This document shows, piece by piece, positions 1-64,000 of a stretch of DNA of 64,000 nucleotides. Location: assembly GCA_029258725.1 (NCBI GenBank), contig JAPDKE010000006.1, positions 199 to 64,198 of the forward strand. The letters run 5' to 3'. The notes beneath the pieces are model-generated. The model was not told the origin of the DNA. It did not search any database and saw only the letters and a list, made by a program, of their open reading frames with translations. A program made the translations under genes and the position numbers. Positions within the stretch are counted from its first letter, which is position 1, and every line of letters starts with the position of its first letter. Origin of the DNA: a bacterium. Its GTDB lineage: Bacteria; Hydrothermota; UBA3072; JAPDKE01.

Positions 1-3000
1 AAAGAACAAGAACCCTGGGAGGCAGGGTATCCTTTATCAAAGAGAAGTGGTCAAACCAGGCACGACCCTGAGCAGAATCTATTATCATGGCACTTATCCT
101 CACAGAATCATTCTGGGGAACAAAGGAGGCATAGGCATACTTCCAGGAAGTCCTCCCGGTAAGATTGTCAAAATGAGCAGAATTGCCAAGGTAATCTCCT
201 ATGACCAGCTTCGCCTTGCCCTGAGTGAAGTCGGTCCTAATCCATCCACACAACCAGTAAGTCTCACCACGAACAACAGGTATTCCTCCCTGTCCCACCC
301 TCCAGTACCACCTGGAACCATCCCCCTCTATCCTTAAACACGAATCCCCATAAAGCCCCGGAGAATCAATAGCCACCTTCCCATAATCCGTAGCCTCACC
401 CCAGCAACATAGCCCTTCCTCAAAGGAAGGATTGAATACCAGATCATGAGTGAGGATAAATGGCTCTGAATACCCACTACCGGAATCCCCAGTGGCAGTT
501 CTCACAAATACCTCTATCATATACTCTCCAGGAACAATACTGTCCGTATCCCAGAAATAAAGCGTATCCCTCCGGTTCAGAAGAGAATCAGGAACTATCA
601 ACTTCAACCTCTCCTTATTCACATCACATAACCATATCTCAGGAGCCTTATGAGCAAAGAAACTGTTTATTCTCCATCTTATTTTCATCGTTTCCCCAAT
701 TCTCCACTTTCTGCAATTATTGTCATAAGCAGAAGGCTCCAGAACAAGAACTTCAGGCACAAGACGACCTTTAAGATACCCTATGGTATAAGGATCATCT
801 CCATTGGTCCATATGCAGTGGAAATATTCTCCATCTGCAGAAATAGCAAGATGAGGATATACAGCACGATCCACAGTGACAACAGTTTCCGGGGGCGGAG
901 CCTCAGGACCCCCAGCACCCACAGGAGGCTTCAAATGTATCTCCCAATCACCGGTAGAATTGTCATGAAAGGCAACAACCTTGCCAGCAACTATAACAGG
1001 ATATTCTGAATCTCCATCATTCTTCGTGAGTCTCTTCTTCCCTCCCTCACCAATTCCAGGGACATACTTTTTATAATAAATCTCCCTATCGCTTTCATCC
1101 AAAGGAACCTCACTCCATACAAGATGCAGTGCACCATCACCCCAGCCTATGCTCAACTGATCACCCTTGTTAATGCCAGAAAATGTCCCTCCCTCAAGAA
1201 CAGTGCCATCCCTATCCCTTAACTGCCAGTGAAACGGGCCCGATGTCCCCTTTCTCCACACCGCATATATCTTCCCATCATCGGTAGAAGTGATAACACC
1301 TCCATCTATTGCGTCGTCTATATAACCATCATTGATATTAGGAGAAGTAGGAACCACAAAAAATACAAGGGTGTCATTAAGGTTATTTTTCCTGAAACGC
1401 AGTATTCGGAAGGTTCTATCGTAATCCGAACCCTGCCACTGGAAGTAATATGATTCCTTGTATCCAACGAATCCATACTCATCATTTATTGCAAGGGTAA
1501 GAGGACCGAAAGTTGTCCGATGGATATTCCTTCCACCCACGCAGTACCTTCGTGGATATGCCCATACCCGTGCTCCTATTTGTGGATCATAGTAATTCTT
1601 CCTCACATTTATTGCATAACCAACAAAAACCCCTTTGGAATAAGTGGTAGTCCAGGACACCCATAACTCATCTCCATAAGTTGCCAGGGTAGCAAGGTAA
1701 GGACCTGATATCGTGTCCAAGAAAAAGTCAGGCTTCCATGTTACACCGCCATCCTCCGAATATGTATACCACAAAGAGTCGTTATGAACGTAAATAACAT
1801 GCAATACACCATCCGAGGTCTCCGCTATTTTCCTTTCATTGTTATAGGCAGTGGCATGAGAATAAGAGGTTGTAAAATGGTCTTTTAAAGGAAGCACAAA
1901 GTCAATAGAATCGCTGAAAACCGAAACCCTCACACCATTCGTTGTCTTCATTTTATACCTTCCATCAGGATTACCCGTTATAGGACCCCATATATGTTCA
2001 CAAATACTCCCTGCACCAGGAGCCCCGGGAAGGAAAAACAAAACATTCCCATCTTTATAGATATAATACCCTCCCTGAGGATTATCCGTTTCATGGTAAG
2101 ACCTGTCCCTCCACTTGAAACGCACATACTCATGATTAAGGGCATAAACCTCTAAAAATTTTGGAGGGTTAAGCACGCTCAAAGTATAAGGCCAGTTCCT
2201 CACAGGATCATGCAACGGATTCTCCCCTATTTCCCGATAAGGATTTCCCCCTTTCAGAATATCCTGATAGTAAGGATTATCGTGTATCTCAGGATGCTCC
2301 CCATAGGTATCACGATAGTTGGAAGAAATCATGCGAGCATAGTTTGTAGTGAAGAATTTATGTCGGGTCTTTATCTCAAAGGAAATCTCGGATACATTCG
2401 GGGACTGAGGAATATCAACCGTAAAGTTCCCTTCATGCCTCTGGACCCCCTCAAGCAATGTGTCTCCTATTTTATTTCCATCTTCTCCGTTGGATAGAAC
2501 CTCCCATAACTGTATCTTGGTAGGTCCAAATGTTATAACATCGTAGTGGAGGTTAACGGTGTTGAAACTTATATCAGGAGCATCCAGGGTGGTTAAAACC
2601 TCATTGTTTCCTTCAAAGAACATCTTTATAACCCCGGGCTGGTCATAATAGTAAGGATCATCTATAGGATAAATCCCTCCCACCACCCCTGCCTTCCTGG
2701 AGATGGCATATATACTGACTTTCTTGGTAGGGTCATACTCTGGGATTATCATTGTATAGTCCAGATACTGGGGGCCCTGTAAGACATTCTGAGCCCAAAC
2801 CGAGAGTAATGAAATCGCCCTGTTTAACTCTTCAGCATATGAACTCCTGAGGTTCGGTTTTTTGTAATCTCCGTAAGTATCAAGAAACTCCACTATCCTC
2901 CTCGCCTTTGCATATCCCTTGGAAAAACTCACTCCATCAATAATTTCAACATTCTGCTCACTCGAAGGAAGCGCATTATACACGAGGTCCATCATTTCAG

Positions 3001-4258
3001 GCGTCTCAAGATACCTGTACCACGGCTCTTTAAAACCACTTCTCAAATAATAAAGATCTATTCCCCATGTATCCTTTACATACTGAGCAAGGGCAGTCCA
3101 GAATACTTCCTTTATTATGTGATTTAATATAATACCTCTACAAATTCCTACAATTCCATCCTTGGCATTCCATAACCAGTACCAGAGCTCCGCAACGTCC
3201 TTAAGAAGGTAGAGATCGTTTAATAAATCATCGGATAAAACATTTCTTATGGCCATCTCTTCATAATACTGTATTATACTATCACTCGGCGTCCATTGAG
3301 GATGCAAAGGAACGCCCCCAGCCTTCCTTCCATCAGGAAGTGCCCCGTAAATAAAGTATAACGCTATGGCAGTCCCATGCAGATATGCCTTTAGCCTATC
3401 CGGAGTAAGGTTGTCAATATCATACCCCACAGCCTGAGCAGCCTCCACAAATCTGTCTATAGGAGGATAATCTTTGTCATACCAGCCCTCTATATATCTT
3501 CCTGTAATATCATACTCCACAAGATATTGAAATGATTTATATGCAGGGTGCATACTTACTTTAGCTCCTATCTCATCTTCGCTATAACACGTCCATAAAT
3601 ACATAAGAATACTCTCGGGATGCGGAACATAGGTTTCAACAAAGAGTTCATAATATCCCTCAGGAGCCTGCAATATATCTGTTCCCAAAGCACTGTCCGC
3701 CAGTATAGAGTATCCATATCCAAAAAGAGAAGGAATAAGAACCATATGAGCATACAAATCCTGAAGAACATGCATAAAAGCCCCGTAAATAAGAGACTTC
3801 TCATAGGGACTCCATCCCTGCTGGTTTGCATACTGCACCATTGCGTATAACTTCTCAAAGTTATGATTCAAATCAGGCTCGTTAAATTTGATAAGTTGCC
3901 GTGTCTGATTATATATCTCATCGCTGATCTTTAACCCTTCTGGCTCTATAGCATATTCCGCATACCAGGGAATATTGTATAAAATATCTATAAGCTCTGA
4001 TATTCCCCTCTGAGCATCCTCATCCAGAAGATCAGGCAGCATCGTTCCAATATAGTAAAACTTCTTGGTCATCATATCTATAAAATCATTCCAAGTACCT
4101 TCGACTTTCCAGGGTTTTCCCAACACATCCCTGAAATCACTGTCAAACCCAGCCCATACATCCTTTGTCTTCATTGAAATATAAATATGGGTGAACGGAG
4201 CAAAGGCATAAAGGGAAACAAAAAAGAAAAATGAGAGAAGAAAAGATGCCCTTTTCAT
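1..4258 (-). CDS. Large secreted multidomain protein (>1419 aa, runs off window start): N-terminal Zn-dependent phospholipase C-like domain, then FN3-like, BNR/propeller and CBM/Ig-like modules
   Basis: Not in the ORF track. ATG at 4258 after a GGAGG RBS; MKRASFLLSFFFFVSLYA signal peptide, then FAPFTH, YYIGTMLPD and GAFMHVLQDLYAH (Zn_dep_PLPC-like motifs). Later NPPKNLEV..FKWRD (FN3-like) and YSEDGGVTW (Asp-box). The same frame is still open at the window start (...WFDHFSLIKDTLPPRVLVL). Confidence 0.8.
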   Translation of the reverse strand, partial: MKRASFLLSFFFFVSLYAFAPFTHIYISMKTKDVWAGFDSDFRDVLGKPWKVEGTWNDFIDMMTKKFYYIGTMLPDLLDEDAQRGISELIDILYNIPWYAEYAIEPEGLKISDEIYNQTRQLIKFNEPDLNHNFEKLYAMVQYANQQGWSPYEKSLIYGAFMHVLQDLYAHMVLIPSLFGYGYSILADSALGTDILQAPEGYYELFVETYVPHPESILMYLWTCYSEDEIGAKVSMHPAYKSFQYLVEYDITGRYIEGWYDKDYPPIDRFVEAAQAVGYDIDNLTPDRLKAYLHGTAIALYFIYGALPDGRKAGGVPLHPQWTPSDSIIQYYEEMAIRNVLSDDLLNDLYLLKDVAELWYWLWNAKDGIVGICRGIILNHIIKEVFWTALAQYVKDTWGIDLYYLRSGFKEPWYRYLETPEMMDLVYNALPSSEQNVEIIDGVSFSKGYAKARRIVEFLDTYGDYKKPNLRSSYAEELNRAISLLSVWAQNVLQGPQYLDYTMIIPEYDPTKKVSIYAISRKAGVVGGIYPIDDPYYYDQPGVIKMFFEGNNEVLTTLDAPDISFNTVNLHYDVITFGPTKIQLWEVLSNGEDGNKIGDTLLEGVQRHEGNFTVDIPQSPNVSEISFEIKTRHKFFTTNYARMISSNYRDTYGEHPEIHDNPYYQDILKGGNPYREIGENPLHDPVRNWPYTLSVLNPPKFLEVYALNHEYVRFKWRDRSYHETDNPQGGYYIYKDGNVLFFLPGAPGAGSICEHIWGPITGNPDGRYKMKTTNGVRVSVFSDSIDFVLPLKDHFTTSYSHATAYNNERKIAETSDGVLHVIYVHNDSLWYTYSEDGGVTWKPDFFLDTISGPYLATLATYGDELWVSWTTTYSKGVFVGYAINVRKNYYDPQIGARVWAYPRRYCVGGRNIHRTTFGPLTLAINDEYGFVGYKESYYFQWQGSDYDRTFRILRFRKNNLNDTLVFFVVPTSPNINDGYIDDAIDGGVITSTDDGKIYAVWRKGTSGPFHWQLRDRDGTVLEGGTFSGINKGDQLSIGWGDGALHLVWSEVPLDESDREIYYKKYVPGIGEGGKKRLTKNDGDSEYPVIVAGKVVAFHDNSTGDWEIHLKPPVGAGGPEAPPPETVVTVDRAVYPHLAISADGEYFHCIWTNGDDPYTIGYLKGRLVPEVLVLEPSAYDNNCRKWRIGETMKIRWRINSFFAHKAPEIWLCDVNKERLKLIVPDSLLNRRDTLYFWDTDSIVPGEYMIEVFVRTATGDSGSGYSEPFILTHDLVFNPSFEEGLCCWGEATDYGKVAIDSPGLYGDSCLRIEGDGSRWYWRVGQGGIPVVRGETYWLCGWIRTDFTQGKAKLVIGDYLGNSAHFDNLTGRTSWKYAYASFVPQNDSVRISAMIIDSAQGRAWFDHFSLIKDTLPPRVLVL

Positions 4259-4276
4259 CTCTCCCTCCTTTTTACT

Positions 4277-5467
4277 TCATTTTACATTCTCCACCCTGAA
4301 TACAACTTCAAAGTTCTTGGGCTCCATCTCCTCTATCCAGACAAGATAAAGCCTCCCATCCCGGATAACCCCCGATGGGGTCATGGAAAAATAAGGAGTC
4401 TCAATCCTGTGAGTCTCAAACTCATTCCCATCCCAGGCACTCCAGTAAAGATCAGCAGTACTCCCCTCTATCTTCCACCATAAAAGATAAAGGTCAGAAC
4501 CATGGAAAAATATCCTGTCAAGCCTCGGCTTACCACACATGGGAAAGGTATCAACAGAAGACCATGAAGTATCCTCCTTGACCATATAGGCAATGTTATA
4601 AGTCCCAAAACCACAGTGAAAATGAGGATCATGCCAGGTAACAACAAGCCTCCCATCCCTGCTCAAGGCAATCCTTGGCCACTCCGCACTTGCAGAACCA
4701 TATATCATCTCAGAAATATACCAGCCATCCTTATCACCATAAGAATAGAAAATGCTCCCGCCCCCTTCCACAAGGTGAACCTTCCCATCACCGTCAATAA
4801 CAAACCTGAGATTGTCAGCCCTTGCCGGAAGTTCATACGGTCCTTCCCAGCTTCCATCGGGATTGCGAATAAGATAATGATAAACAATCCCGCCCGAAAA
4901 AGGCTCGTATATCAAATGAAACCTGTTCTCCCTATCACATTGAGCATACCATAACCATGTCCGCTCAGGAAGAACCTCAAGGTCTCCCCATTCACCACCA
5001 AAAGGCTTGCAGGCATAGAAAAGGGTCCCGGGCTCCCAGTCTCTGTAAAGCAAATGAAGATTTCCAAGAGAGTCCATCCTGAGCGTGGGCCATGCAGCCT
5101 CACCCCTATCATATACCACAACAGGCTCAGACCAGTTACGCTCAGAAATATCCCTCCAGGAATACATTATCCTCCAGTCCCCTGTTGTAACATCACTGTC
5201 AGCCCAGACAACATGAATAATACCATCAGGAGTAATAGCAATCTCAGGACAGACAGAATTTCCAGGGGTATTGGAAATCACCTGAAAAGGCAGATTTTCT
5301 CCATCCTCCCTCTGACAGAAACTGCCTGAAAAAAGAAAAAGAAGTAAAACAAGAAAAAGTGCTCTTAGCCCGTACCCGACTCTAATAAAAATCTTCCCAC
5401 CTTTTCCTTCCTTACGGGAGGAAGAAGAAACAGCGTAAATCACCAAATCTCTTCTATGCTTGCTCAT
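4277..5467 (-). CDS. Secreted BNR/sialidase-like beta-propeller protein
   Basis: Repeated 'G.IHVVW.D', 'GNLHLLY', 'GKVHLV', 'GRLVVTW' and 'GRLYLVW' blades. The hydrophobic signal segment starts ~33 aa in, after a degenerate leader-element sequence. Confidence 0.75.
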   Translation of the reverse strand: MSKHRRDLVIYAVSSSSRKEGKGGKIFIRVGYGLRALFLVLLLFLFSGSFCQREDGENLPFQVISNTPGNSVCPEIAITPDGIIHVVWADSDVTTGDWRIMYSWRDISERNWSEPVVVYDRGEAAWPTLRMDSLGNLHLLYRDWEPGTLFYACKPFGGEWGDLEVLPERTWLWYAQCDRENRFHLIYEPFSGGIVYHYLIRNPDGSWEGPYELPARADNLRFVIDGDGKVHLVEGGGSIFYSYGDKDGWYISEMIYGSASAEWPRIALSRDGRLVVTWHDPHFHCGFGTYNIAYMVKEDTSWSSVDTFPMCGKPRLDRIFFHGSDLYLLWWKIEGSTADLYWSAWDGNEFETHRIETPYFSMTPSGVIRDGRLYLVWIEEMEPKNFEVVFRVENVK

Positions 5468-5522
5468 TTTTGCCCTCTTTTAAATTTTTAAAATTTTTCC
5501 CACTTTGTCAACCCCTCGATTT
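5380..5522 (-). repeat. Degenerate copy (F) of the promoter-leader-hairpin element, fused in frame to the BNR gene
   Basis: AATCGAGGGGTTGACA (TTGACA at 5506-5511), then TCTTCTTCCTCCCGTAAGGAAGGAAAAGGTGGGAAGATTTTTATT, which aligns with the hairpin/U-tract of the other copies. Confidence 0.55.
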
Positions 5523-5640
5523 TTCCTTCCACCACTCAGTAACAGGAAGGGGTAAGATGGATGAGCATGAAATTTTTATCAACACTCATTTCTCTCCTCT
5601 TCCAAGTATAGAATACAATATCTTTTATCACTCTGTCAAG
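5523..5640 (-). repeat. Leader element copy A (promoter, RBS, truncated leader ORF 5536-5589 MSVDKNFMLIHLTPSCY*)
   Basis: TTGACA at 5634-5639 and TATTCT -10; core TTTCATGCTCATCCATCTTACCCCTTCCTG shared with the other copies. Confidence 0.75.
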
Positions 5641-5821
5641 GGTTCCATTTTCCTCAAGAATAATGGGGCCCAAAGTGGATTTGTTTCTTCAGATTTTTGG
5701 TTGAATCAAAAAACTTTTGAAACCGTATGAATGCCCTTCACCATTTTGTTTTTGTGGGCAGAATTGTTAACTGTTAATGATTAACCCCCAAAATCATAGT
5801 GAGAAGCGATTTCTTCTCATT

Positions 5822-6274
5822 TCAATCACCTCCTTTTGGTTGAAGATTGAAATTTAAGGTAGTGGTATCTTCCATTATAATGAAAGATTTCACTTTGAAG
5901 TAATAACCCTCTTTATAAGCACTCACATATACCTTAGTATTTACATATCCAGCAATGCATGCATAATATCCATTTTCATTAGTATACGCATATGGAGTAT
6001 GAATTACAGAATCTGCAGGATAACTTCTCGAAATCCCTATACACACACTATCCAAAGGTTCTTCCGTTTGAGCATCATGCACATACCCATCGATCCAACC
6101 AACGGGTGGCTCAGGTGGCTCTGGCTCCTTAATATCGCAAGCAGTTCCCCAAAAGATCAGTGCTCCCACAATGACTATTCTTGAAATCCATGTATAAACA
6201 CTTACTCCGATTATCCTCCATAAAGGTATATCCTGATTATCCCCCGCTGATAAAAGCAAAAATAGAACTCTCAT
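5822..6274 (-). CDS. Putative lipoprotein with carboxypeptidase-regulatory-like (beta-sandwich) domain
   Basis: GTAC lipobox, Pro-rich linker, 'G.V.DA.T.EPL', 'TNENGYY' and 'KEGY' motifs. Confidence 0.7.
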   Translation of the reverse strand: MRVLFLLLSAGDNQDIPLWRIIGVSVYTWISRIVIVGALIFWGTACDIKEPEPPEPPVGWIDGYVHDAQTEEPLDSVCIGISRSYPADSVIHTPYAYTNENGYYACIAGYVNTKVYVSAYKEGYYFKVKSFIIMEDTTTLNFNLQPKGGD

Positions 6275-6440
6275 CGCTCCCTCCTTTCCTTCGCATTATA
6301 AATCAAAAAAATTCCTTCCTCCTTTACCTCCCTCTCGGGACAGGAAGGGGCAGGACGGATAACCATGAAATTTTTACAGGTATTCATTTTTCCCATCCTT
6401 CATTCACAGGGTAAAACATTTTCTACTTCTCTGTCAAGCC
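6271..6440 (-). repeat. Leader element copy B (promoter, RBS, 38 aa leader ORF 6271-6387, hairpin + U-tract)
   Basis: TTGACA at 6432-6437; MNTCKNFMVIRPAPSCPEREVKEEGIFLIYNAKERRER*, whose TGA overlaps the next ATG (ATGA); CCTTCCT...AGGAAGG followed by A2T7. Confidence 0.8.
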
Positions 6441-6455
6441 CCTCACATTCAGTTT

Positions 6456-7289
6456 CTATTCTTCCAGAACATCTCTCAATATCCATATTTCAAGATTTAT
6501 GAGCCTGCACCCCGGGTCAATACAGCCTATCATTTCTCCTGCTGAGAAAATCACATCCTTACCAGACGGGTCCCAGGAGGGAAATTTTATTCCGCTATTA
6601 CAATAAGGCCTTGCATCAAGTCTGATAGTATCACCTGTAGAAAGAGAGAAAAGATAAAGTCCACCTCCTTCTGTTATCAAATATTGAGAATTTGTGGGAT
6701 TTAAAGAGGGATAAGAACCCATGAGCACGATGGTATCCGCAACAACCTCAAAACCATCAAATCCCATTTCTTCGTAAGGTTTAACAAACTCCTCTTCCCC
6801 GGTATACAGGTTCAAGCGATAAAAACCCCGTTGAGAACGGCCTCCACCCCATGCATAGTAATAAAGAAAAGTATCCTCATGGCCAAATCTTAAACATTCC
6901 ACATAAGGTTGAGAATGATAAATGGTATCAAGAACTTCACCCTCAGGGGTTATAAGGAGAATTATTGTGTCATTTGTCACCGCAATCTTTGAACCATCAT
7001 CTGAGAGGTCAAAATAAGTCCATAAACCATCTATCACCTCTCTTTCGTCCGTCCCATCAAGGTTTACTACCTTTAATGTGCCATAGCCCCACCAGGGCTC
7101 CGCAATCTTCTCAAGATAGAAAATTCTGTCATCGGGACTCCACCGGGGAAAACACAGGTATGCATTTTCTTTTGTCAGCACCAGTTCAAGTTTTGAATTC
7201 CTGTGGAAAAACAGGCATTCCCAATCACAACCTCCGGTAAGAAGGGCAAGATTGAAGAGGAAAAGATAGAGTAAGTATCTGGGCTTCAT
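6456..7289 (-). CDS. TolB-like (PD40) beta-propeller lipoprotein, paralog 1
   Basis: TGGC lipobox; PRWSPDDR, LSDDGSKIA and PSWDPSGK repeats; paralogous to the next two genes. Confidence 0.8.
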   Translation of the reverse strand: MKPRYLLYLFLFNLALLTGGCDWECLFFHRNSKLELVLTKENAYLCFPRWSPDDRIFYLEKIAEPWWGYGTLKVVNLDGTDEREVIDGLWTYFDLSDDGSKIAVTNDTIILLITPEGEVLDTIYHSQPYVECLRFGHEDTFLYYYAWGGGRSQRGFYRLNLYTGEEEFVKPYEEMGFDGFEVVADTIVLMGSYPSLNPTNSQYLITEGGGLYLFSLSTGDTIRLDARPYCNSGIKFPSWDPSGKDVIFSAGEMIGCIDPGCRLINLEIWILRDVLEE

Positions 7290-8185
7290 TTTTTATCTCC
7301 CTCGCTTTCTAAAACATCCTTTAAAATCCAGATCTCAAACCATGTAGGTCTTACAGGGTCTCCTACACATTTAGCAGAGGAAAAAACCACATCTTTTCCC
7401 AAAGGAGACCAAGAAGGATAAAGTATCACAGCACAGGGATAAGGTGCTGTATCTAAGGTATCCATTTCACCACTCAGAAAGTTTAATAAAATAAGCCCTT
7501 CACCTTTTTCTACGCTTCCAAATAAGTATTGTGGAGATATTATATATTGGTGGTCTACAGGGTTAAAACTTTGCATTCCTTCCACAATCTCCCCATCAGG
7601 AGTAACCTCAAAACCCATTATATTTAAATCTCTGCATTGTTCAATAAACTTCTCTTCCCAGGTATAAAGATTAATCCTGTAAAAGCCCCAGGAAGAATCA
7701 TTTTCACTCCCATAAGCGTAGTAGTAAAGAAATGTATCACTCCAGCCAAATCTACACGTAAGAACATAAGGCTGAGAAGTGGGTACCGTGTCCAGTATCT
7801 CACCATCAGGAGTAAGGAGAATTAAAATTCCTCCACTGTCTATATATACTCCCCAATACTCAACACTTAATTTGCCTTTAATTACTGCCAGGTTTGTTCC
7901 ATCCCTTGACATAGTAAGGTATGACCATGCGCCATCAATTACCTTCTTTTTTCCAGAACCATCAGCATTCACCACCATAAGTGTTCCTGCATCACTCCCT
8001 GCTATCTCGAGATAAAATATCTTACCATCCGGATGCCAGCAGGGCATAATAAGATGGCAATTTTCCTCTGATATTACAGATTTCAGATTGGGATTCCTGC
8101 GAAAGATAAACCAGGAAAACCAATCCACACCGCAACCTTTCAGGAAAACGAGTAAGCCCAGACCTATAAAAAACTTTGCCTTCAT
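7286..8185 (-). CDS. TolB-like beta-propeller lipoprotein, paralog 2
   Basis: LKGC lipobox; PCWHPDGK, MSRDGTNLA and PSWSPLGK; shares RNPxL and EIWILxDV with its paralogs. Confidence 0.8.
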   Translation of the reverse strand: MKAKFFIGLGLLVFLKGCGVDWFSWFIFRRNPNLKSVISEENCHLIMPCWHPDGKIFYLEIAGSDAGTLMVVNADGSGKKKVIDGAWSYLTMSRDGTNLAVIKGKLSVEYWGVYIDSGGILILLTPDGEILDTVPTSQPYVLTCRFGWSDTFLYYYAYGSENDSSWGFYRINLYTWEEKFIEQCRDLNIMGFEVTPDGEIVEGMQSFNPVDHQYIISPQYLFGSVEKGEGLILLNFLSGEMDTLDTAPYPCAVILYPSWSPLGKDVVFSSAKCVGDPVRPTWFEIWILKDVLESEGDKK

Positions 8186-57801: not shown

Positions 57802-59091
57802 ATGCTCCTTGAAAACTATCGTGTAGCAAAAACTTTCTGGAAAATAGCGAAGGGTATAAGAGAAAAAGACATAAGAAAATCTATCCTCTTCTTCCAGGCC
57901 GGAAAGAGAATCATTACATGCCCTCGCCCATTTCAGGAAGAGGATAAATCCCTTTTAAGGCTGGAAAATGGGATTCTTAACCGGGCATATCAGTTCCTTA
58001 ACGGAACAATCCCGGAAAAATACAGGAAGTACATAGTAGATAAGAATGGATATCCTATGTGGTGTGATAATGACAAAATTTCTCCACTTCTTCAACAGGC
58101 AATAGAAGAGGGTGTGCCTGAGTTGACTGGGCTTGTCTATCCTTTTGCTTCAAGAATCAAAGAAGAACTGCTTCATGCTGAGGAGATTGAAAGGGTAAAA
58201 ATCAATGGCATTAACAAGGAAATTACTGGAAAAATCGTGTTTTTATGTCAGGTAAAGAGAAGGCCATGTATCCAAGAAATCAAGGGAATGGTAGTTGAGA
58301 AAAAATGCAACACACGGTGGATAGGAAGAATCCGGGGAATAGAAATCCCCTGTGAGATTGTATTTCTCTCCCCAGAGGAATGGGGGGAGACCGAAGATAG
58401 TTTTTCTCTCCAAGGAGACTTGCATGTTCATTCTACCTGGTCTGATGGGTTTAATTCTCTGGAGGAAATAAAATTACATGCCAGGAAGCTCGGGCTGAAA
58501 TACGTTGCAATTACTGACCATTTGGGAAGAAAAAAGGATGAAGATGATACAGCTTTGGAGGAAAAAAAGAAACGTCTTCTGGAACGTAATCGTGTTATTG
58601 AGAAACTTAATAAAGAGGGAGAAGTAAAACTTTTAAAAGGTGTGGAAGTGGATATCGACCTTGATGGGCATCTTGTTTGTGAAGATGAGGCGTTTTTCAA
58701 AGAATTTGATATCATAGTTGCGGGGATTCATTTTAAGGTATCAGAGAACAGGATTGGACGGATAGTGAAAGCAATGGAATATCCATTTGTGCATGGAATT
58801 GCACACCCTGTAAATCGAGACCTCTTCTTCAATCATGTGGGAATCACATTTAATGAGGTTGAGAAAATCTTTAAGGCGGCTGTTCAGCGCAACAAATGGG
58901 TTGAGATTAATTGTGATTTTAACCGGTTTGAACCCCCGCTGGAATATATCCGGATGGGAAAAAGAATGGGAGTAAAATTTTATCTTGGAACAGATTCCCA
59001 TAGTTTATGGATGATGGGTTTGGTATTCCCGGCACTGGCATGGCTTCGCAGTGTCCTTTCCCCTACCGATTTGGTGAATAACTCCATATAA
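57802..59091 (+). CDS. PHP-domain protein derived from PolX, with a degenerate polymerase part
   Basis: GDLHVHSTWSDG, ITDH, GVEVD, IAHP, EIN and GTDSH. The N-terminus resembles the PolX N-domain, but the DxD is not recognisable. Confidence 0.8.
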   Translation: MLLENYRVAKTFWKIAKGIREKDIRKSILFFQAGKRIITCPRPFQEEDKSLLRLENGILNRAYQFLNGTIPEKYRKYIVDKNGYPMWCDNDKISPLLQQAIEEGVPELTGLVYPFASRIKEELLHAEEIERVKINGINKEITGKIVFLCQVKRRPCIQEIKGMVVEKKCNTRWIGRIRGIEIPCEIVFLSPEEWGETEDSFSLQGDLHVHSTWSDGFNSLEEIKLHARKLGLKYVAITDHLGRKKDEDDTALEEKKKRLLERNRVIEKLNKEGEVKLLKGVEVDIDLDGHLVCEDEAFFKEFDIIVAGIHFKVSENRIGRIVKAMEYPFVHGIAHPVNRDLFFNHVGITFNEVEKIFKAAVQRNKWVEINCDFNRFEPPLEYIRMGKRMGVKFYLGTDSHSLWMMGLVFPALAWLRSVLSPTDLVNNSI

Positions 59092-59354
59092 AGATTGTTA
59101 TGATATTTTGCTCCTTATCAAAAGGCCTGATTATTTTACATTCAGTGTTCTGGGAGATAAAAGTCCTGGAGAGATCATCCAGTAGCTACCTATCTCCTTG
59201 AAATCCCTTTCTCTCCACCTATAATCCTGGACGATGTCATTGAAGAAATGAGAAAAACTGGAATGTGAGGAAATCGGTCAACCTCCTGTTGAGTAGATGC
59301 TTGACATCTTGTTCTCGTTCTGTAAGAATAAATAGGGAAAAAAAGGAGGAAAGG

Positions 59355-59906
59355 ATGAAAAAGAGATTGTCTCTTACCGTGAAGAAAGTTTTAAATACGG
59401 TTTCTCTTCTTACTCAGGAAAACATAAAAGCAAATCGGGAGATTATCCATGAAATTGTGTATCTTTCCCTTCCTTCCCATGCGCGAAAAAAATATTACAC
59501 AGCAGGCCTGGAAGGTCCTTACAGTGAAGATGTTGACCTTCTAATCCAGGGTCTTCTTTATAAAAAATCGCTCCGATATGAGAATGGATTTAAGGCCGAG
59601 ACAAATGGTACTCCTGATAGAAGAGAGAAAGTAACCGTTGAGTTTTTGAAAAAGCATCATCTCCTTCAGCATGACAAACTCGCAGAATTCTCCCGGGTTT
59701 TCATGTTTTTTGATGAACTAAAAGACAAAAAAGAGGAGGAACTGGTAAACTATATTAAAAAAAGAAGCAAATTTCTTGGATGGACAGACCTTTCCAGGAA
59801 GACCAAAAATGTGATTTTGAGATATCTCAAATACGCTCGCGAACTGGAGAAGGAGTTAAAGGGTGCATCTTCTGGAAGGATGGGAAATAGAGACTCTTCC
59901 AGTTAG
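59355..59906 (+). CDS. Winged-helix-like protein with GPYS motif (YwgA/SocA-Panacea-like)
   Basis: AGGAGG-supported ATG at 59355; IHEIVYL...YY...GPYSEDV...L; overlaps the HD gene. Confidence 0.55.
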   Translation: MKKRLSLTVKKVLNTVSLLTQENIKANREIIHEIVYLSLPSHARKKYYTAGLEGPYSEDVDLLIQGLLYKKSLRYENGFKAETNGTPDRREKVTVEFLKKHHLLQHDKLAEFSRVFMFFDELKDKKEEELVNYIKKRSKFLGWTDLSRKTKNVILRYLKYARELEKELKGASSGRMGNRDSSS

Positions 59907-61260
59907 AGACCCTATTTACAATTTCATTGAAATACCGCGGGAATTTATCTCTCTTATTGACTCTGAAATATTTCAGAGGTTAAGATGGATTTCTCAAACT
60001 CCACTGGAACAACTTGTGTATCCGTCGGTGGCTCATTCCAGGTTTGAACATAGTCTGGGAACCATGTATCTTGCGATGACTGCCGCCGTAAGCCTTATCA
60101 GAAACTCCCCAGCAAGGCTGGAGGCAATACTCAAGGAAGATGATGCATTTAGAAGTTTATCTCCAAAGGAAAGAGAACGGCAATTTATTCTCTCAGCCGG
60201 GGCTATTGGGTTACTTCACGACCTTGGGCATCCTCCATTCAGTCATGCTCTGGAAGAAGCATGTGAGTACATATTTGAGGATGAGAAGCATTTTTATAAC
60301 CATGAGATAGTTTCGTATTATTATGCACGGATATTATTGAGACAGAAGAAAGTGAAGACCACACCATGGGGAGAAAAGGCATTGAGTGTTTTAAAGAATA
60401 AAAAGTCAAAGGAGAAGATTAAGCTCTCTCCCGTTGAAAATCTCCTGCTTACCCTTATAGACGGGCCTATTGATGTTGACAAAGGGGATTATCTTTTAAG
60501 GGATAGTTATCATTGTGGAACCACCTATGGCCTTTATGACAGAGATAGATTGTGGAGAAATATTATAATTACCAAAGACAACCAGCTTGGAGTGCATCCA
60601 AAAGGAGCGGTAGAGGCATGGGCATTGAGAATAGCACGGTATAGACTGGGAACGGGTGTTTATCAGCATCATACACGAAATATAATAGATGCCATGCTTA
60701 TTGATATACTCTGTGGAATAAAGGAAGAATGTCTTCCATTAATAATTCCTGATTACAGAAAAAAGGAGAAATTTCTTGGCTGGACCGAACATACATTTCT
60801 GAATGCACTCATGGAGGCTGGAGACCGTAGAACCAGAAGAAAGGTTGAACGATTGAGAAAAAGGGAACTTTATAAAAGAGGTTTTGAGATTAATTTGATT
60901 GAATTTCCTGAACTGCTCATAAAAGAGACGGTAACACAGGTAAAAAGAGACCTTCTCTTCTGGAAAGACTCCCTTTCTTCCAGGGTGAAGGATAAGATTA
61001 TTTTCCTTGTAGATAGAATCCCTATACCTCCTGTATTTGAAAAGGAGGTCCAGAAGGAAATAATAGTTGAAGAAAATGGTAATGAAAAACCGCTTGCAGA
61101 GTATCTTGGATTTAAGTTAGAGGAGACACAAATTGTTTCGTGCCCCTGGAGAATTTTTATATTTGTTGACAAAGATTTGAAGGATAACAAAGAAATCCTG
61201 GAAGGGATAGAAAAAGACCTGAGAGAATACCTCGAAAAAATCTCCAAGCCTCTCTCTTGA
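59863..61260 (+). CDS. HD-domain dNTP triphosphohydrolase-like protein (YwfO/SAMHD1 family)
   Basis: RDPIY, FQRLR.I.Q, HSRFEHSLG, LLHDLGH.PFSH.LE, HE, DVDKGDYLLRD and VYQH. Confidence 0.9.
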   Translation: MHLLEGWEIETLPVRDPIYNFIEIPREFISLIDSEIFQRLRWISQTPLEQLVYPSVAHSRFEHSLGTMYLAMTAAVSLIRNSPARLEAILKEDDAFRSLSPKERERQFILSAGAIGLLHDLGHPPFSHALEEACEYIFEDEKHFYNHEIVSYYYARILLRQKKVKTTPWGEKALSVLKNKKSKEKIKLSPVENLLLTLIDGPIDVDKGDYLLRDSYHCGTTYGLYDRDRLWRNIIITKDNQLGVHPKGAVEAWALRIARYRLGTGVYQHHTRNIIDAMLIDILCGIKEECLPLIIPDYRKKEKFLGWTEHTFLNALMEAGDRRTRRKVERLRKRELYKRGFEINLIEFPELLIKETVTQVKRDLLFWKDSLSSRVKDKIIFLVDRIPIPPVFEKEVQKEIIVEENGNEKPLAEYLGFKLEETQIVSCPWRIFIFVDKDLKDNKEILEGIEKDLREYLEKISKPLS

Positions 61261-61291: not shown

Positions 61292-64000
61292 ATGTGGGTA
61301 TTTGAGGTGAAGTTAAGGATTGAAAAAGATGGGAAGTTAACGAGAAGGTATTTTCTGGGGGAGGAGGAGAAGTTTGTTTTCAGTGATAGTTTATGGGAAA
61401 AAGAAGAGATAGAAAAAGATATTGACGATTATTACGAGGCTCTCAAAAAGGGAAATACACCTGCGACGGATAAACTCGGTGTTCTCATTTATAAACTTTT
61501 ATTCCCTCTCCCTGCGCTTCACAGGTTATTTATGGATTATTTCAATGACTGTGGTTCTGGTAATTTTCTTTTCCTGGTGGATATTGAGGAAGAAAATGAA
61601 CTTTTGATAAAAATTCCCTATGAACTTGCAGGATGGGGCTCTCTCAATATTGATAATCTGGAGGAGGAGTTATACCCTAACGCCTTTTATGGAGTTTATC
61701 CCGGGATACCCATTGAGAAGAAAAGATACAGATCCTTTCCAGACCGGTCTCTTTCGTGTGATACCTCCATGGTATTTGCCCGCAGGAGTCATAATCGGGA
61801 TGTAAACCTGGTGGAAGTTGAAAAGTTGCGGATTCTTATTCTTCGGTCCTCGGAAGGAGTTCCTTATGATGCAAGGGAAATAGGGATTTTCAAGAACATT
61901 GAGCAGGCGGTGGAGGAGAGGATTGAGAAGATTGAAGAAAAGGAAATCTTGTTTTCCACATCTGAGGCTGTAAGACAGGTCATTGAGGATAGCAAACCCC
62001 ATGTGCTTCATGTGATTTCTCATGGTGAAGGAAACGGAAGGATAGGAAATATGGCTCCCAAGGAGTGGGCCGAGATTTGTGAGGGTATTTCAATAGTTTT
62101 CTTTTCCTGCTGTCATGGGCACATACCTGCCTTTTATGCCTCCAGGTTCTGTGGTTGTGCCATAGGGGTTAAGGGAATTGTGGATGGGCGTATGATTGCG
62201 AAAGATGCTGGAGTCTTTTATAGTAACTTGCTTACTTCTTCACATCCTCAAGCACTTTATGATGCATTGAGAAAAACTTTAAAAGGAGATATTTATACCG
62301 TTTATCTCTCCCCCCGTGCCCTCAAACTCTTCCTCTGGCCCGAGGAGAGGGTGGAGAAGAAATTCAGGGAAATGATGAGAGATTATGTATCTCCATTGAA
62401 AATGGAGACTAAGTTGTATTCAGGGAGGCTGGAGGATGTGTACATTAAAAGAGAACTGGAGGAAAAAAGAGAAGGGAAAGGAAGGCTTGAGGTTAGAGAA
62501 AGAGATAAAGCATTTCCAGGGAAAATACCCGAAGCCCCTTCTGAGGTAATCGCAGATGAAAAATTGATAGGGGAATTGAAAAAGAGCAGGGGTAGGTTTG
62601 TGATTTCTGGTGCAATGGGCTCCGGAAAGACGATGCTTTTAAAATATCTGGCTTTAAGGCTGTCCTCAGATTCTGAAGCGGTTCCCATTTATATTTCCCT
62701 TCCATCTCTTGACTTAAAATCTTCAGACTTTATGAATGCTGTTGAGATATATGTGAAGGAGCATCTTTCTAAGAAAAAGGAAAAGGAGATTTTATGGGAA
62801 GAAGTGATACTGAAAAAGGGGATATTTCTTCTTGATGGTTATGATGAACTTGGAAAAGAGGAAAGACGAAAACTCAATGAGATGCTGGTAAGAAATGAGG
62901 CATTAAAAATTCGCCCTCTCGTGATTGCTACAAGACCCGAGTATGAAGGAGAGTTAAAGAAAGACTTCAGGATTTTGAAAATGCGTCCTCTCAAAAACTG
63001 GAAAGAGGGAGTGGAGAAGTATATAAAGGATGAAGAAAAAAGAAAGAATTTTATTGAAGAGATTGAAAAACGAAAAAAGCATTATGTTTCTTTGTTTGAA
63101 ACCCCTCTTTTTCTTGCTATTTTGTGCATAGTTTATGAAAAAAATGGGTGGTTACCTTCCACATGGACAGAGTTGATAAGGGTATATGTTGAATCATCTA
63201 TCAGGGATTGGCCTGAGGAGAAAGGGAGAGATAAAATTGATGATATCGGATATAAAAAACTCATTAAAGTGCTTTCCGAGGTTTCTTTTGAGTATTTTAA
63301 TGAAAAAATATTGCCTGAAGAGGATTTAATGCAAAGGATGGAAGAAAAGGGCGTTAAAGAGTTTAAGGATTATATAAGGGGGATACTTGTTCCTTTGCGG
63401 AAAATGGAAGAGTACAGGGTAAGGGTTTATTACTCTTTCATTCACGATGCCTTTCTTGAATGGTTTTGTGCCCTATATTTAAAGGAAAATGGATATTTGG
63501 AGTTTCTTAAGGAAAATTATTATCGTCCCGAATACCGAAATGTGTTTATTTTTCTTTCTGGTTTGCTTGAGGATGCGACAGAGATGGTGGAGTTCCTTGA
63601 AGAGAATGGAGCGGTTGAACTTGCGGCATATTGTGTAAGGGAGGGAAAGGTTAAAAAAGAGGTTATTGATAAAGTTGTTAATGACCTTATGGAACTTGTG
63701 AGGATGGAGATAAAATGCGAGGATAATCTTCCCTGGCTTCGTGATGCAGTGTTTGCGGTGAGGGAGCATGTTAAGGTAAAAGATGACTGGGATTTAGGCC
63801 TAAAACTGAGGATTGCCGAATATATTTCCTCGCTGGATGGACTACAGAAGATATTTGAAGAACATAGAGACAAAGCTTGTGTTGCAAAAGATGTTGCCCG
63901 GGCTCTTGGTGAGATTGGTGAAAAGGAGGGATTAAATGTGCTTAAGGGAGTATTTGAAAAACATGGAGATAACCCTGATGTTGCCGAGGCTGTTACCTGG
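61292..64000 (+). CDS. CHAT protease - NACHT NTPase - HEAT-repeat protein (STAND/NLR-like), truncated by the window end
   Basis: Not in the ORF track. Frame from ATG 61292 (903 codons to the window end): IPYEL, PHVLHVISHG and IVFFSCCHG (CHAT His/Cys); GAMGSGKT, IFLLDGYDE, IATRP, ETPLFL and FIHDAFLEWFCA (NACHT); ARALGEIG (HEAT). Confidence 0.88.
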   Translation, partial: MWVFEVKLRIEKDGKLTRRYFLGEEEKFVFSDSLWEKEEIEKDIDDYYEALKKGNTPATDKLGVLIYKLLFPLPALHRLFMDYFNDCGSGNFLFLVDIEEENELLIKIPYELAGWGSLNIDNLEEELYPNAFYGVYPGIPIEKKRYRSFPDRSLSCDTSMVFARRSHNRDVNLVEVEKLRILILRSSEGVPYDAREIGIFKNIEQAVEERIEKIEEKEILFSTSEAVRQVIEDSKPHVLHVISHGEGNGRIGNMAPKEWAEICEGISIVFFSCCHGHIPAFYASRFCGCAIGVKGIVDGRMIAKDAGVFYSNLLTSSHPQALYDALRKTLKGDIYTVYLSPRALKLFLWPEERVEKKFREMMRDYVSPLKMETKLYSGRLEDVYIKRELEEKREGKGRLEVRERDKAFPGKIPEAPSEVIADEKLIGELKKSRGRFVISGAMGSGKTMLLKYLALRLSSDSEAVPIYISLPSLDLKSSDFMNAVEIYVKEHLSKKKEKEILWEEVILKKGIFLLDGYDELGKEERRKLNEMLVRNEALKIRPLVIATRPEYEGELKKDFRILKMRPLKNWKEGVEKYIKDEEKRKNFIEEIEKRKKHYVSLFETPLFLAILCIVYEKNGWLPSTWTELIRVYVESSIRDWPEEKGRDKIDDIGYKKLIKVLSEVSFEYFNEKILPEEDLMQRMEEKGVKEFKDYIRGILVPLRKMEEYRVRVYYSFIHDAFLEWFCALYLKENGYLEFLKENYYRPEYRNVFIFLSGLLEDATEMVEFLEENGAVELAAYCVREGKVKKEVIDKVVNDLMELVRMEIKCEDNLPWLRDAVFAVREHVKVKDDWDLGLKLRIAEYISSLDGLQKIFEEHRDKACVAKDVARALGEIGEKEGLNVLKGVFEKHGDNPDVAEAVTW

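Follow-up and report, generated by a model that had tools for sequence, protein, structure and literature searches.

A putative CHAT-like/NACHT/HEAT protein: an NLR-like gene with a divergent caspase-like head in an uncultured vent bacterium

Does the open reading frame (ORF) that runs off the 3' end of this stretch of DNA encode a bacterial NLR-like protein headed by a caspase-like protease? The stretch, hereafter the window, comprises 64,000 nucleotides (bases 199-64198 of contig C13) of a 2.11-Mb genome assembly in 53 contigs, and the gene in question starts at position 61292. A first-pass annotation, made from the letters of the window, had proposed a CHAT-NACHT-HEAT architecture. Our analysis supports this three-part layout, with a NACHT match of 36.7 bits, a HEAT_2 match of 170.5 bits and a CHAT assignment obtained with hhalign. 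On balance, the gene probably encodes a STAND (NLR-like) ATPase composed of a divergent CHAT-type protease head (His244 and, most probably, Cys274), a NACHT domain and a long HEAT array. The features of the gene are as follows.

61292..64000, + strand: CHAT-like/NACHT/HEAT ORF, 903 aa within the window, ATG start, no stop, open at the 3' end
61403..62278, + strand: predicted divergent CHAT (caspase-like, clan CD) domain; aa 38-329 aligned to the CHAT clade profile, alpha/beta core at about aa 173-330
62021..62023, + strand: codon of His244 (VISHG), the predicted catalytic His
62111..62113, + strand: codon of Cys274 (second Cys of FFSCCHG), the favoured predicted catalytic Cys, with Cys287 as the alternative
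62600..62986, + strand: NACHT NTPase domain, aa 437-565 (Pfam PF05729)
62609-62632, + strand: Walker A motif GAMGSGKT, from aa 440 onward
62825-62848, + strand: Walker B motif FLLDGYDE, from aa 512 onward
62987..63875, + strand: helical region linking NACHT to the repeats, aa 566-861
63876..64000, + strand: start of the HEAT repeat array, built of a 33-aa (99-nt) unit and continuing beyond the window to the contig end
61257..61285, + strand: sigma-70-like promoter match (TTGACA, 17 nt, TATTAT; 11 of 12 positions), ending 6 nt before the ATG

NACHT module, HEAT array and reading frame

NACHT domains are recognized by a Walker A motif (GxxxxGK[ST]), a Walker B motif (hhhhDGxDE) and, after it, a TSRP-like motif. 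The central domain of the protein exceeded the PF05729 cut-off of 26.7 bits, scored 40.2 bits in a six-frame search of the genome, and carries both Walker motifs followed by IATRPE at aa 545, in line with the complete NACHT module of the first-pass annotation. The closest relative of the module, P0123 (50% identity), is the N-terminally cut upstream gene of a metagenomic locus, L027, that belongs to the family described below. The other 12 matches were 22-30% identical; according to precomputed Pfam assignments, all 12 carry NACHT and several carry HEAT, and none carries CHAT. Outside the family, the nearest NACHT relatives were only about 24% identical to the window's protein. A third NACHT match above the Pfam cut-off in this genome lies on contig C5 (68625-69107, + strand; 30.8 bits) in a short open frame of 275 aa.

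The HEAT repeats begin after the helical region, and only their first units fall inside the window. Followed to the contig end, the product contains HEAT_2 matches in 6 stretches and a HEAT_PBS match of 97.1 bits, which bears out the earlier reading of a repeat array starting here. Tandem Repeats Finder reported a 99-nt period, 77% matches and, as far as the contig goes, 11.8 copies. When ten of the 33-aa units were compared, variation was centred at unit positions ~15-27, about a dozen positions, the remainder of the unit being nearly invariant. Such a pattern would be expected for the binding surface of a fast-evolving repeat sensor.

The frame reaches the last base of C13, giving 1,249 aa, and is still open there. 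The list of ORFs that accompanied the window had missed the gene, because it omits frames that run off the sequence. An internal stop was looked for in contigs from four public sequencing runs of three studies: X1 may be the source sample, X2 is another sample of the same study, and X3 and X4 come from two further studies. The gene is present in each of the four, and no RNA data set figured among the runs listed for it. The interval 61292-63580 was free of stops and indels in the contigs of these runs. A 32.8-kb contig of X2 spans the whole interval with 35 substitutions and 0 gaps; the 32 differences listed comprised 15 synonymous and 17 nonsynonymous changes, with no stop and no change in codons 244 or 274. 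Runs X3 and X4 cover the gene partially, with few differences, and are gapless ahead of the repeats.

The promoter listed above is a consensus match only, the region holding 16 sigma-70-like sites compared with a mean of 10.4 in shuffled sequences. No Shine-Dalgarno-like purine run was seen between it and the ATG. The NLR gene may therefore have a promoter of its own and a transcript that is leaderless or nearly so.

The N-terminal domain and its predicted catalytic dyad

The head of the protein is extremely divergent in sequence. A word-indexed search with residues 1-400 against 5.8 billion clusters returned nothing at E <= 0.001 among 6,801 candidates (496-1,581 aa). An exhaustive phmmer search of 1.84 billion representatives gave two matches: a 221-aa fragment from a 92%-identical strain and a single distant protein, P0003 (E 6.9e-4, library-wide). 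P0003 is a bona fide CHAT-GUN4 protein (CHAT, 75 bits), and its alignment spans the segment PHVLHVISHG of the window's protein, which reads PHIFHFIGHG in P0003. The clade of P0003 comprised 706 proteins at E <= 1e-5; among the 120 listed, 117 were trimmed to the domain and every third was aligned (39 sequences). This clade was compared by hhalign with an alignment of the window's protein, its paralog on contig C17 and the strain fragment. The two aligned over 248 columns (query 38-329, template 44-331) with a score of 55.8, a probability of 92.3 and an E-value of 5.7e-7, while the control alignments, one reversed and 20 column-shuffled, reached at most a score of 18.8 and a minimum E-value of 0.14.

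Other searches gave results in the same direction. CHAT was the sole Pfam family matched at E <= 10 by the first 400 aa. The top PDB sequence match of the small family profile was 8tl0, a CHAT domain-containing protein, at a non-significant E-value of 0.75, with His and Cys in the same register. The best ten matches of an ESM Atlas feature search were all CHAT clusters (top score 0.88), which we take as a lead only. Thus, while the CHAT head of the first-pass annotation did not pass the Pfam threshold, the P0003 match, the hhalign comparison with its controls and an 8tl0-like model of moderate confidence speak for it. Together, these comparisons support the view that the N-terminal domain is homologous to bona fide CHAT domains and very divergent from them.

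Single-sequence AlphaFold modelling of the first 400 aa was unusable, with a mean predicted local distance difference test score (pLDDT) of 37.2. A model guided by a multiple sequence alignment (A3, the query plus 40 CHAT clade sequences) reached a mean pLDDT of 53 and a predicted template modelling score of 0.52, with pLDDT values of 60-86 in the core, aa 170-300. In this model, strands 179-185, 214-220, 238-243, 268-273 and 301-304 alternate with helices, one after each strand; His244 is placed directly after strand 238-243 and Cys274 directly after strand 268-273. In Foldseek, the four leading matches (E 1.3e-3 to 4e-3) were all chains from 8tl0, a structure of the activated SAVED-CHAT filament, with generic alpha/beta folds appearing from E 0.012. 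In VIA-align, which is independent of Foldseek, 8tl0_A stood alone at Z >= 8 among 48,161 chains (Z 8.9; next best 6.9), and the superposition had a root-mean-square deviation of 3.9 over 151 residues, with model residues 173-350 lying on chain residues 302-479. Pro-caspase-1, metacaspase, Dronc and CED-3 were found at Z 6.0-6.6, amid many unrelated alpha/beta folds.

The His and Cys motifs named by the first-pass annotation are both present, VISHG at aa 241-245 and FFSCCHG at aa 270-276. His244 was aligned to the His of the clade's GHG motif in every alignment tried. The clade Cys was placed on Cys274 by hhalign, by a hidden Markov model alignment to 8tl0 and by MAFFT E-INS-i (six of six alignment windows). 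Cys274 lies behind a hydrophobic strand (ISIVFFSC) and is kept in four of four family members, whereas position 287 is Gly in one of them, the metagenomic sequence L024; for these reasons Cys274, rather than Cys287, is favoured as the predicted catalytic Cys. The fold model cannot decide this point, because alignment A3 was chosen to reproduce the hhalign register. An alternative alignment that included the paralog (A2) put the clade Cys on Cys287; A3 was preferred to it for modelling.

A genome-wide search with PF12770 matched only one gene, on contig C10, and not the window's gene. The C10 match (24.8-27.5 bits), the genome's only CHAT domain at Pfam level, forms the C-terminus of a 954-aa DUF2357 / PD-(D/E)XK (McrC-like) protein. 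At that locus (L013, C10:23276-26722), the CHAT ORF ends at locus position 2016 and the gene of a GmrSD-type restriction enzyme follows directly (ORF 2032-3447). A CHAT domain fused to a nuclease, and this in a restriction context, seems an unusual find.

Gene end, paralogs and neighbours

The gene is cut by the end of C13, the last 127 nt or more of which exactly repeat an earlier stretch of the HEAT array; this exact internal repeat is why the assembly broke off at that point. Open HEAT arrays are carried by no contig ends other than the end of C13 and the start of C17, both in + orientation, and the first 126 residues encoded on C17 are HEAT units and a tail, ...EKFEEIVSSISSPCVLLFLRHPIAIKPLLS, after which comes a stop. 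Since these are the only two such ends and their orientations agree, the HEAT tail at the start of C17 is quite likely the true C-terminus of the gene. The same hydrophobic C-terminal tail, EKFE[ED]IVSSISSPCVLLFLRHP.AIK.LL, follows the HEAT array in three of three genes with a known end. No bridge between C13 and C17 was obtained from the Logan contigs of the four runs, all of which break near 63,580, where sequence shared with paralogs or repeated begins. L024 was considered as the missing bridge and rejected: its tail resembles the start of C17 at the protein level, but its DNA is only 73-89% identical to the window's genome and it therefore belongs to another organism. If the join holds, the window's gene would be the first of a tandem array, followed by a small YbjN-like gene and a second NLR gene without the catalytic-type His. 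The relevant features outside the window are listed here.

L011 (C17) ~3371-7615, + strand: paralogous NLR gene (NACHT 30.1 bits, HEAT_2 261 bits)
L011 (C17) 2-382 (+ strand), L011 7400-7615 and L027 2560-2741: conserved post-HEAT tail
L011 2832-3293 and 8144-8599, L027 3073-3552, + strand: small-protein family, 154-166 aa, 30-44% identity
L011 (C17) 1399-2613, + strand: Pup-ligase family protein, 405 aa (Pfam Pup_ligase, 188 bits), between the HEAT tail and the second NLR
L011 9337-10632, + strand: subtilase (Peptidase_S8), 432 aa, 163 bits, following the second NLR and the YbjN-like gene next to it after ~1.7 kb

The family consists of a few vent and sediment metagenome sequences. A search with the N-domain in 61 genomes, the window's own and 60 relatives, found matches in the own genome only, in two copies. 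A metagenome scan yielded L027 and also L026, a 90% strain whose upstream genes are the same as those of the window's gene. A scan of one genome per species yielded L024, a 3.5-kb contig open at both ends and coding for 1,166 aa. L024, which holds the nearest relative outside the window's genome, is filed under an archaeal metagenome-assembled genome, while the window's genome carries a bacterial 16S gene (on C17; full-length match to the bacterial small-subunit model, 1,545 bits, winning the clan competition); it may be a mis-binned short, repeat-rich contig, or the family may cross domains.

Two types of N-domain can be told apart. Type A, found in the window's gene and its strain variants, reads LHVISHGEGNGR; type B, found in the C17 paralog, L024 and the second gene of L027, reads LHVIGEE[ES]EV. 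Within type B, identity is 63-75%; between type B and type A it is 28-30%, and FFS.C.G is kept in all four members. The NACHT regions of the C17 paralog and L024 are only 30% identical. In the helical region, a block (IFLSGLLEDATEMVEFLEENGAVELAAYCVREG...MEIKCE) is near-identical among paralogs that otherwise share 30-50% identity. It extends over ~55 aa (IFLSGLLEDATEMVEFLEENGAVELAAYCVREG.VKKEVIDKVVNDLMELVRMEIKCE) at window positions ~63530-63700 (aa ~745-800), and is also found at ~5800-5950 of the C17 locus (L011), in L024 and in L027; it includes a 41-nt run identical between C13 and C17, a pattern that points to gene conversion or to an element under strong constraint. All assemblies break close to this block. 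The conserved N-domains, the 30% identity of the NACHT regions and the near-identical block together make the family a mosaic.

An insertion of ~205 nt interrupts the C17 paralog at ~5556-5762; on its two sides, the stretch coding for LKENGY/LKDNGY is repeated directly, though imperfectly. The insertion is in frame yet adds two stops (TAA at 5648, TGA at 5654), and its sequence is unique in the genome. The paralog is thereby divided into two ORFs, one CHAT-like/NACHT and one HEAT, the latter of which could restart at an internal Met.

The gene order on C17 is HEAT tail, 268-aa ORF, Pup-ligase homolog, 158-aa gene, His-less NLR, 166-aa paralog of the small gene and S8 subtilase; in L027 it is NLR C-terminus with tail, ~330 nt, 159-aa gene and His-less NLR. 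The small proteins thus flank His-less NLR genes in two organisms. They are 44% and 31% identical to the 158-aa member, share conserved C-termini (...FIPA, ...FIPA, ...FILP) and have no Pfam match even at an E-value of 10; in the ESM Atlas they appear YbjN-like (0.93, 213 of 256 features shared, 23 of 30 matches). Judged from C17 and L027, the layout NLR - small protein - NLR is conserved and the Pup-ligase gene is not part of what is conserved. The Pup-ligase protein, an orphan carboxylate-amine ligase, is the sole one in the genome, and the NCBIfam Dop and PafA models scored far under their cut-offs. A search of the genome found no Pup (PF05639), and its only proteasome-family match was one 187-aa protein of HslV size. 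As a candidate part of the system the Pup-ligase homolog was set aside: no such gene lies in the interval between tail and small gene in L027, and a literature search combining it with defence terms returned nothing relevant. The 268-aa ORF of C17 was likewise rejected as a substrate, with no PADLOC match and nothing above chance in Pfam.

The window's gene is preceded by three genes of the same strand (57802-61260, +). The first encodes a PolX-like protein of 429 aa whose PHP domain is C-terminal; the other two are given below.

59265..59906, + strand: GPYS protein, 213 aa, no assigned family
59863..61260, + strand: HD + HD_assoc_2 protein, 465 aa, the immediate upstream neighbour, whose stop lies 31 nt before the NLR ATG

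The HD protein matched Pfam HD (36.8 bits) and HD_assoc_2 (44.1 bits); the PADLOC dGTPase model gave 26 bits and the NCBIfam dGTPase models were far below their cut-offs. These three genes may form a unit with the NLR gene. Their order, PHP - GPYS - HD, recurs only in L026 and is not independent evidence. The first-pass annotation had suggested that a substrate of the protease is encoded nearby, naming the GPYS protein and the proteins at 49.9-52.3 kb. This idea found no support: none of them has a Pfam match at E <= 0.01 or a PADLOC match. For the GPYS protein, Pfam at E <= 10 returned only a sub-threshold OGT_N match (15.2 bits against a cut-off of 27), and PADLOC, NCBIfam and PDB sequence searches gave no match; the protein is also unrelated to the YbjN-like small-protein family of the other NLR loci. 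Six unannotated proteins at 49.9-54.6 kb were equally without Pfam match at E <= 0.01 or PADLOC match, and their genes lie on the opposite strand, past SLT, MotA/ExbB-like and GH3 genes.

Readings of the locus and comparison with known systems

By analogy with characterized systems, the protein is likely to work as a triggered switch. The HEAT array would bind a trigger, for example a phage or stress-related protein, and binding would release NACHT-driven oligomerization. The oligomer would bring CHAT domains together, and their proximity would switch on proteolysis of one or more targets, with growth arrest or death of the infected cell as the likely outcome. Both the defence role and proteolysis are what we infer by this analogy.

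Several results weigh against this picture of a protease-headed NLR. Pfam CHAT stayed below its cut-off (PF12770: E 0.092, 12.6 bits against 24, aa 160-248 only). The fold model is of moderate confidence; since CHAT proteins prevailed in the alignment behind it, the model is consistent with CHAT and cannot confirm the fold independently. The register of the Cys is unstable: MAFFT auto and L-INS-i each placed it on Cys287 in six of six alignment windows, and the eight completed subset tests with MAFFT auto gave Cys274 five times, Cys287 twice and position 284 once. The catalytic-type His is kept in the window's gene only, three of the four informative members reading GEE[ES]E at this place. The His-less domain has a ratio of nonsynonymous to synonymous substitution rates (dN/dS) of 0.27 over 296 codons (C17 paralog versus L024), to be read with a dS of ~1.0, which is near saturation; since His-less copies are under purifying selection, a CHAT-like domain can persist without protease chemistry. 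The window's gene itself is incomplete, lacking its C-terminus and the number of repeats beyond the end of C13. In Pfam and PADLOC searches, which divergent gasdermins could escape, none of the neighbours was recognized as a gasdermin, as another candidate substrate or as a known defence component. In PADLOC-DB v2 the NLR protein had no system-level match, and only P-loop-level matches at E >= 0.0018.

These points bear on three rival explanations. A reading that we hold to be unlikely, while the strongest of the three, is that all members of the family, the window's protein among them, have a pseudo-protease as N-domain, which serves as a scaffold for oligomerization or recruitment, the output being delivered by another protein, either a neighbour or a protease acting in trans. 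The loss of the His in three of four members, the purifying selection on the His-less domain, the conserved YbjN-like gene beside His-less copies in two organisms and the S8 subtilase downstream on C17 all fit such a scaffold. However, the window's copy has a caspase-type SHG and a Cys after the next strand, and the simplest history would be an ancestral active dyad retained in type A and lost in type B; codons 244 and 274 are also unchanged in the listed variants, which is weak evidence at ~1.5% divergence. It is more doubtful still that the protein is an active NLR-like protease used for regulated proteolysis in stress, development or cell-cell conflict and not for phage defence. This would agree with the neighbouring genes (PHP, HD, GH3, SLT, MotA/ExbB-like), which show no defence island, with the lack of a PADLOC system match, and with the association of STAND-caspase systems, as far as the available part of PMC8195603 describes it, with a multicellular habit and broad conflict with invaders and not with phage alone. 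On the other hand, tandem paralogs, mosaic exchange of domains and near-identical repeats with localized variability are typical of immune receptors, and the characterized bacterial NACHT proteins covered by the available part of PMC12169576 protect against phage. We regard it as very improbable that the ORF is a pseudogene in decay or that it arose by misassembly of repeat-rich sequence: the contig does end inside the gene on an exact internal repeat, and the C17 paralog is interrupted by an insertion with two stop codons, but the frame is open over 1,249 codons, free of indels in four runs from three studies, marked by substitutions without stops, and intact in all its motifs.

Within a protease-headed NLR family, the tandem gene order also allows a paired arrangement. 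A catalytic type A protein, a YbjN-like protein and a His-less type B protein might together form a tandem NLR module working as a hetero-oligomer, an idea that we put forward tentatively and consider rather improbable; equally speculative is the division of labour that would go with it, in which one partner senses or regulates and the other cuts. Such an arrangement would resemble plant sensor/helper NLR pairs and caspase-8 with its pseudo-caspase partner cFLIP. The recurrence of NLR tail, YbjN-like gene and His-less NLR in another organism (L027) and the shuffling of domains among paralogs speak for it; against it, the only known upstream-type N-domain in that other organism (L024) is also His-less, and the join of C13 and C17 is one that we infer. 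If true, the pairing would amount to active and inactive protease partners within bacterial NLR pairs.

The reading that we favour, a STAND ATPase with a CHAT-type protease head, finds its parallels in several known systems. Bacterial NACHT proteins have a tripartite layout with an N-terminal effector, a central NACHT and a C-terminal sensor (PMC12169576), and the window's protein has this STAND layout in common with the antiphage bNACHT proteins. The examples described in the available part of that source carry a nuclease or no obvious effector and SNaCT or NCH1 C-termini, whereas the window's protein combines a CHAT-like head with HEAT repeats. Among the NCBIfam antiphage models, only DS8_antiphage matched it, at 32.4 bits against a cut-off of 790. 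Another parallel is offered by the CHAT / Peptidase C14 proteases that adjoin bacterial gasdermins and are fused to NACHT, TPR, LRR or WD40, and for which a direct coupling of ligand recognition to cleavage has been proposed in the portion of the preprint at hand (bioRxiv 10.1101/2021.06.07.447441). These fusions, like the window's protein, unite a caspase-like protease, NACHT and repeats in one polypeptide; unlike in those systems, no recognized gasdermin or substrate gene adjoins the window's gene, and its CHAT domain is too divergent for Pfam.

No PDB entry matched the N-domain better, in structure or in sequence, than the SAVED-CHAT protease of a type III-B CRISPR system (PDB 8tl0), with which it shares only 14-20% identity. 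According to the available text of its description, SAVED-CHAT is activated by cyclic oligoadenylate through its SAVED domain and filament formation (bioRxiv 10.1101/2023.06.23.546230), whereas a NACHT NTPase and HEAT repeats would take the place of the regulator in the window's protein. The STAND-NTPase conflict systems surveyed by Kaur, Burroughs, Iyer and Aravind include, in the accessible part of the article, caspase or trypsin effectors on NACHT-clade and other STAND NTPases with variable repeats (PMC8195603), and the order of N-terminal peptidase effector, STAND NTPase and repeats is that of the window's protein. In the CHAT clade nearest to it, among the matches listed, CHAT occurs together with NB-ARC in P0006 and P0067, the former having TPR as well. 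Unlike in those conflict systems, Pfam detected no effector-associated or Death-like adaptor domain in the window's protein, and its family is confined to a few vent and sediment metagenome sequences.

Animal inflammasomes (NLR plus caspase-1) and the apoptosome combine a repeat sensor, an NTPase-driven oligomer and activation of a caspase-fold protease by proximity; in the animal systems, CARD or PYD adaptors recruit the caspase, which is a protein of its own. The window's protein would share this logic with the protease fused to the switch. Homology with the animal systems is implied only for the NACHT and caspase folds. Bacterial STAND/NLR-like proteins with a caspase-like effector are already known, and the window's gene belongs to that kind. 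Its particular traits are a sub-threshold CHAT domain with one distant match in 1.84 billion sequences, a HEAT sensor, and the coexistence of a His-bearing copy with conserved His-less copies near YbjN-like genes. In bacteria, fusions of a caspase-like protease with an NLR switch are the counterpart of inflammasomes; studies exist for very few of them, and none of those in the portion of the literature covered here has a HEAT sensor. The present gene extends this class to an uncultured vent bacterium, with a protease domain divergent enough to escape standard annotation, and its family provides a natural contrast between a copy with the catalytic-type His and conserved copies without it.

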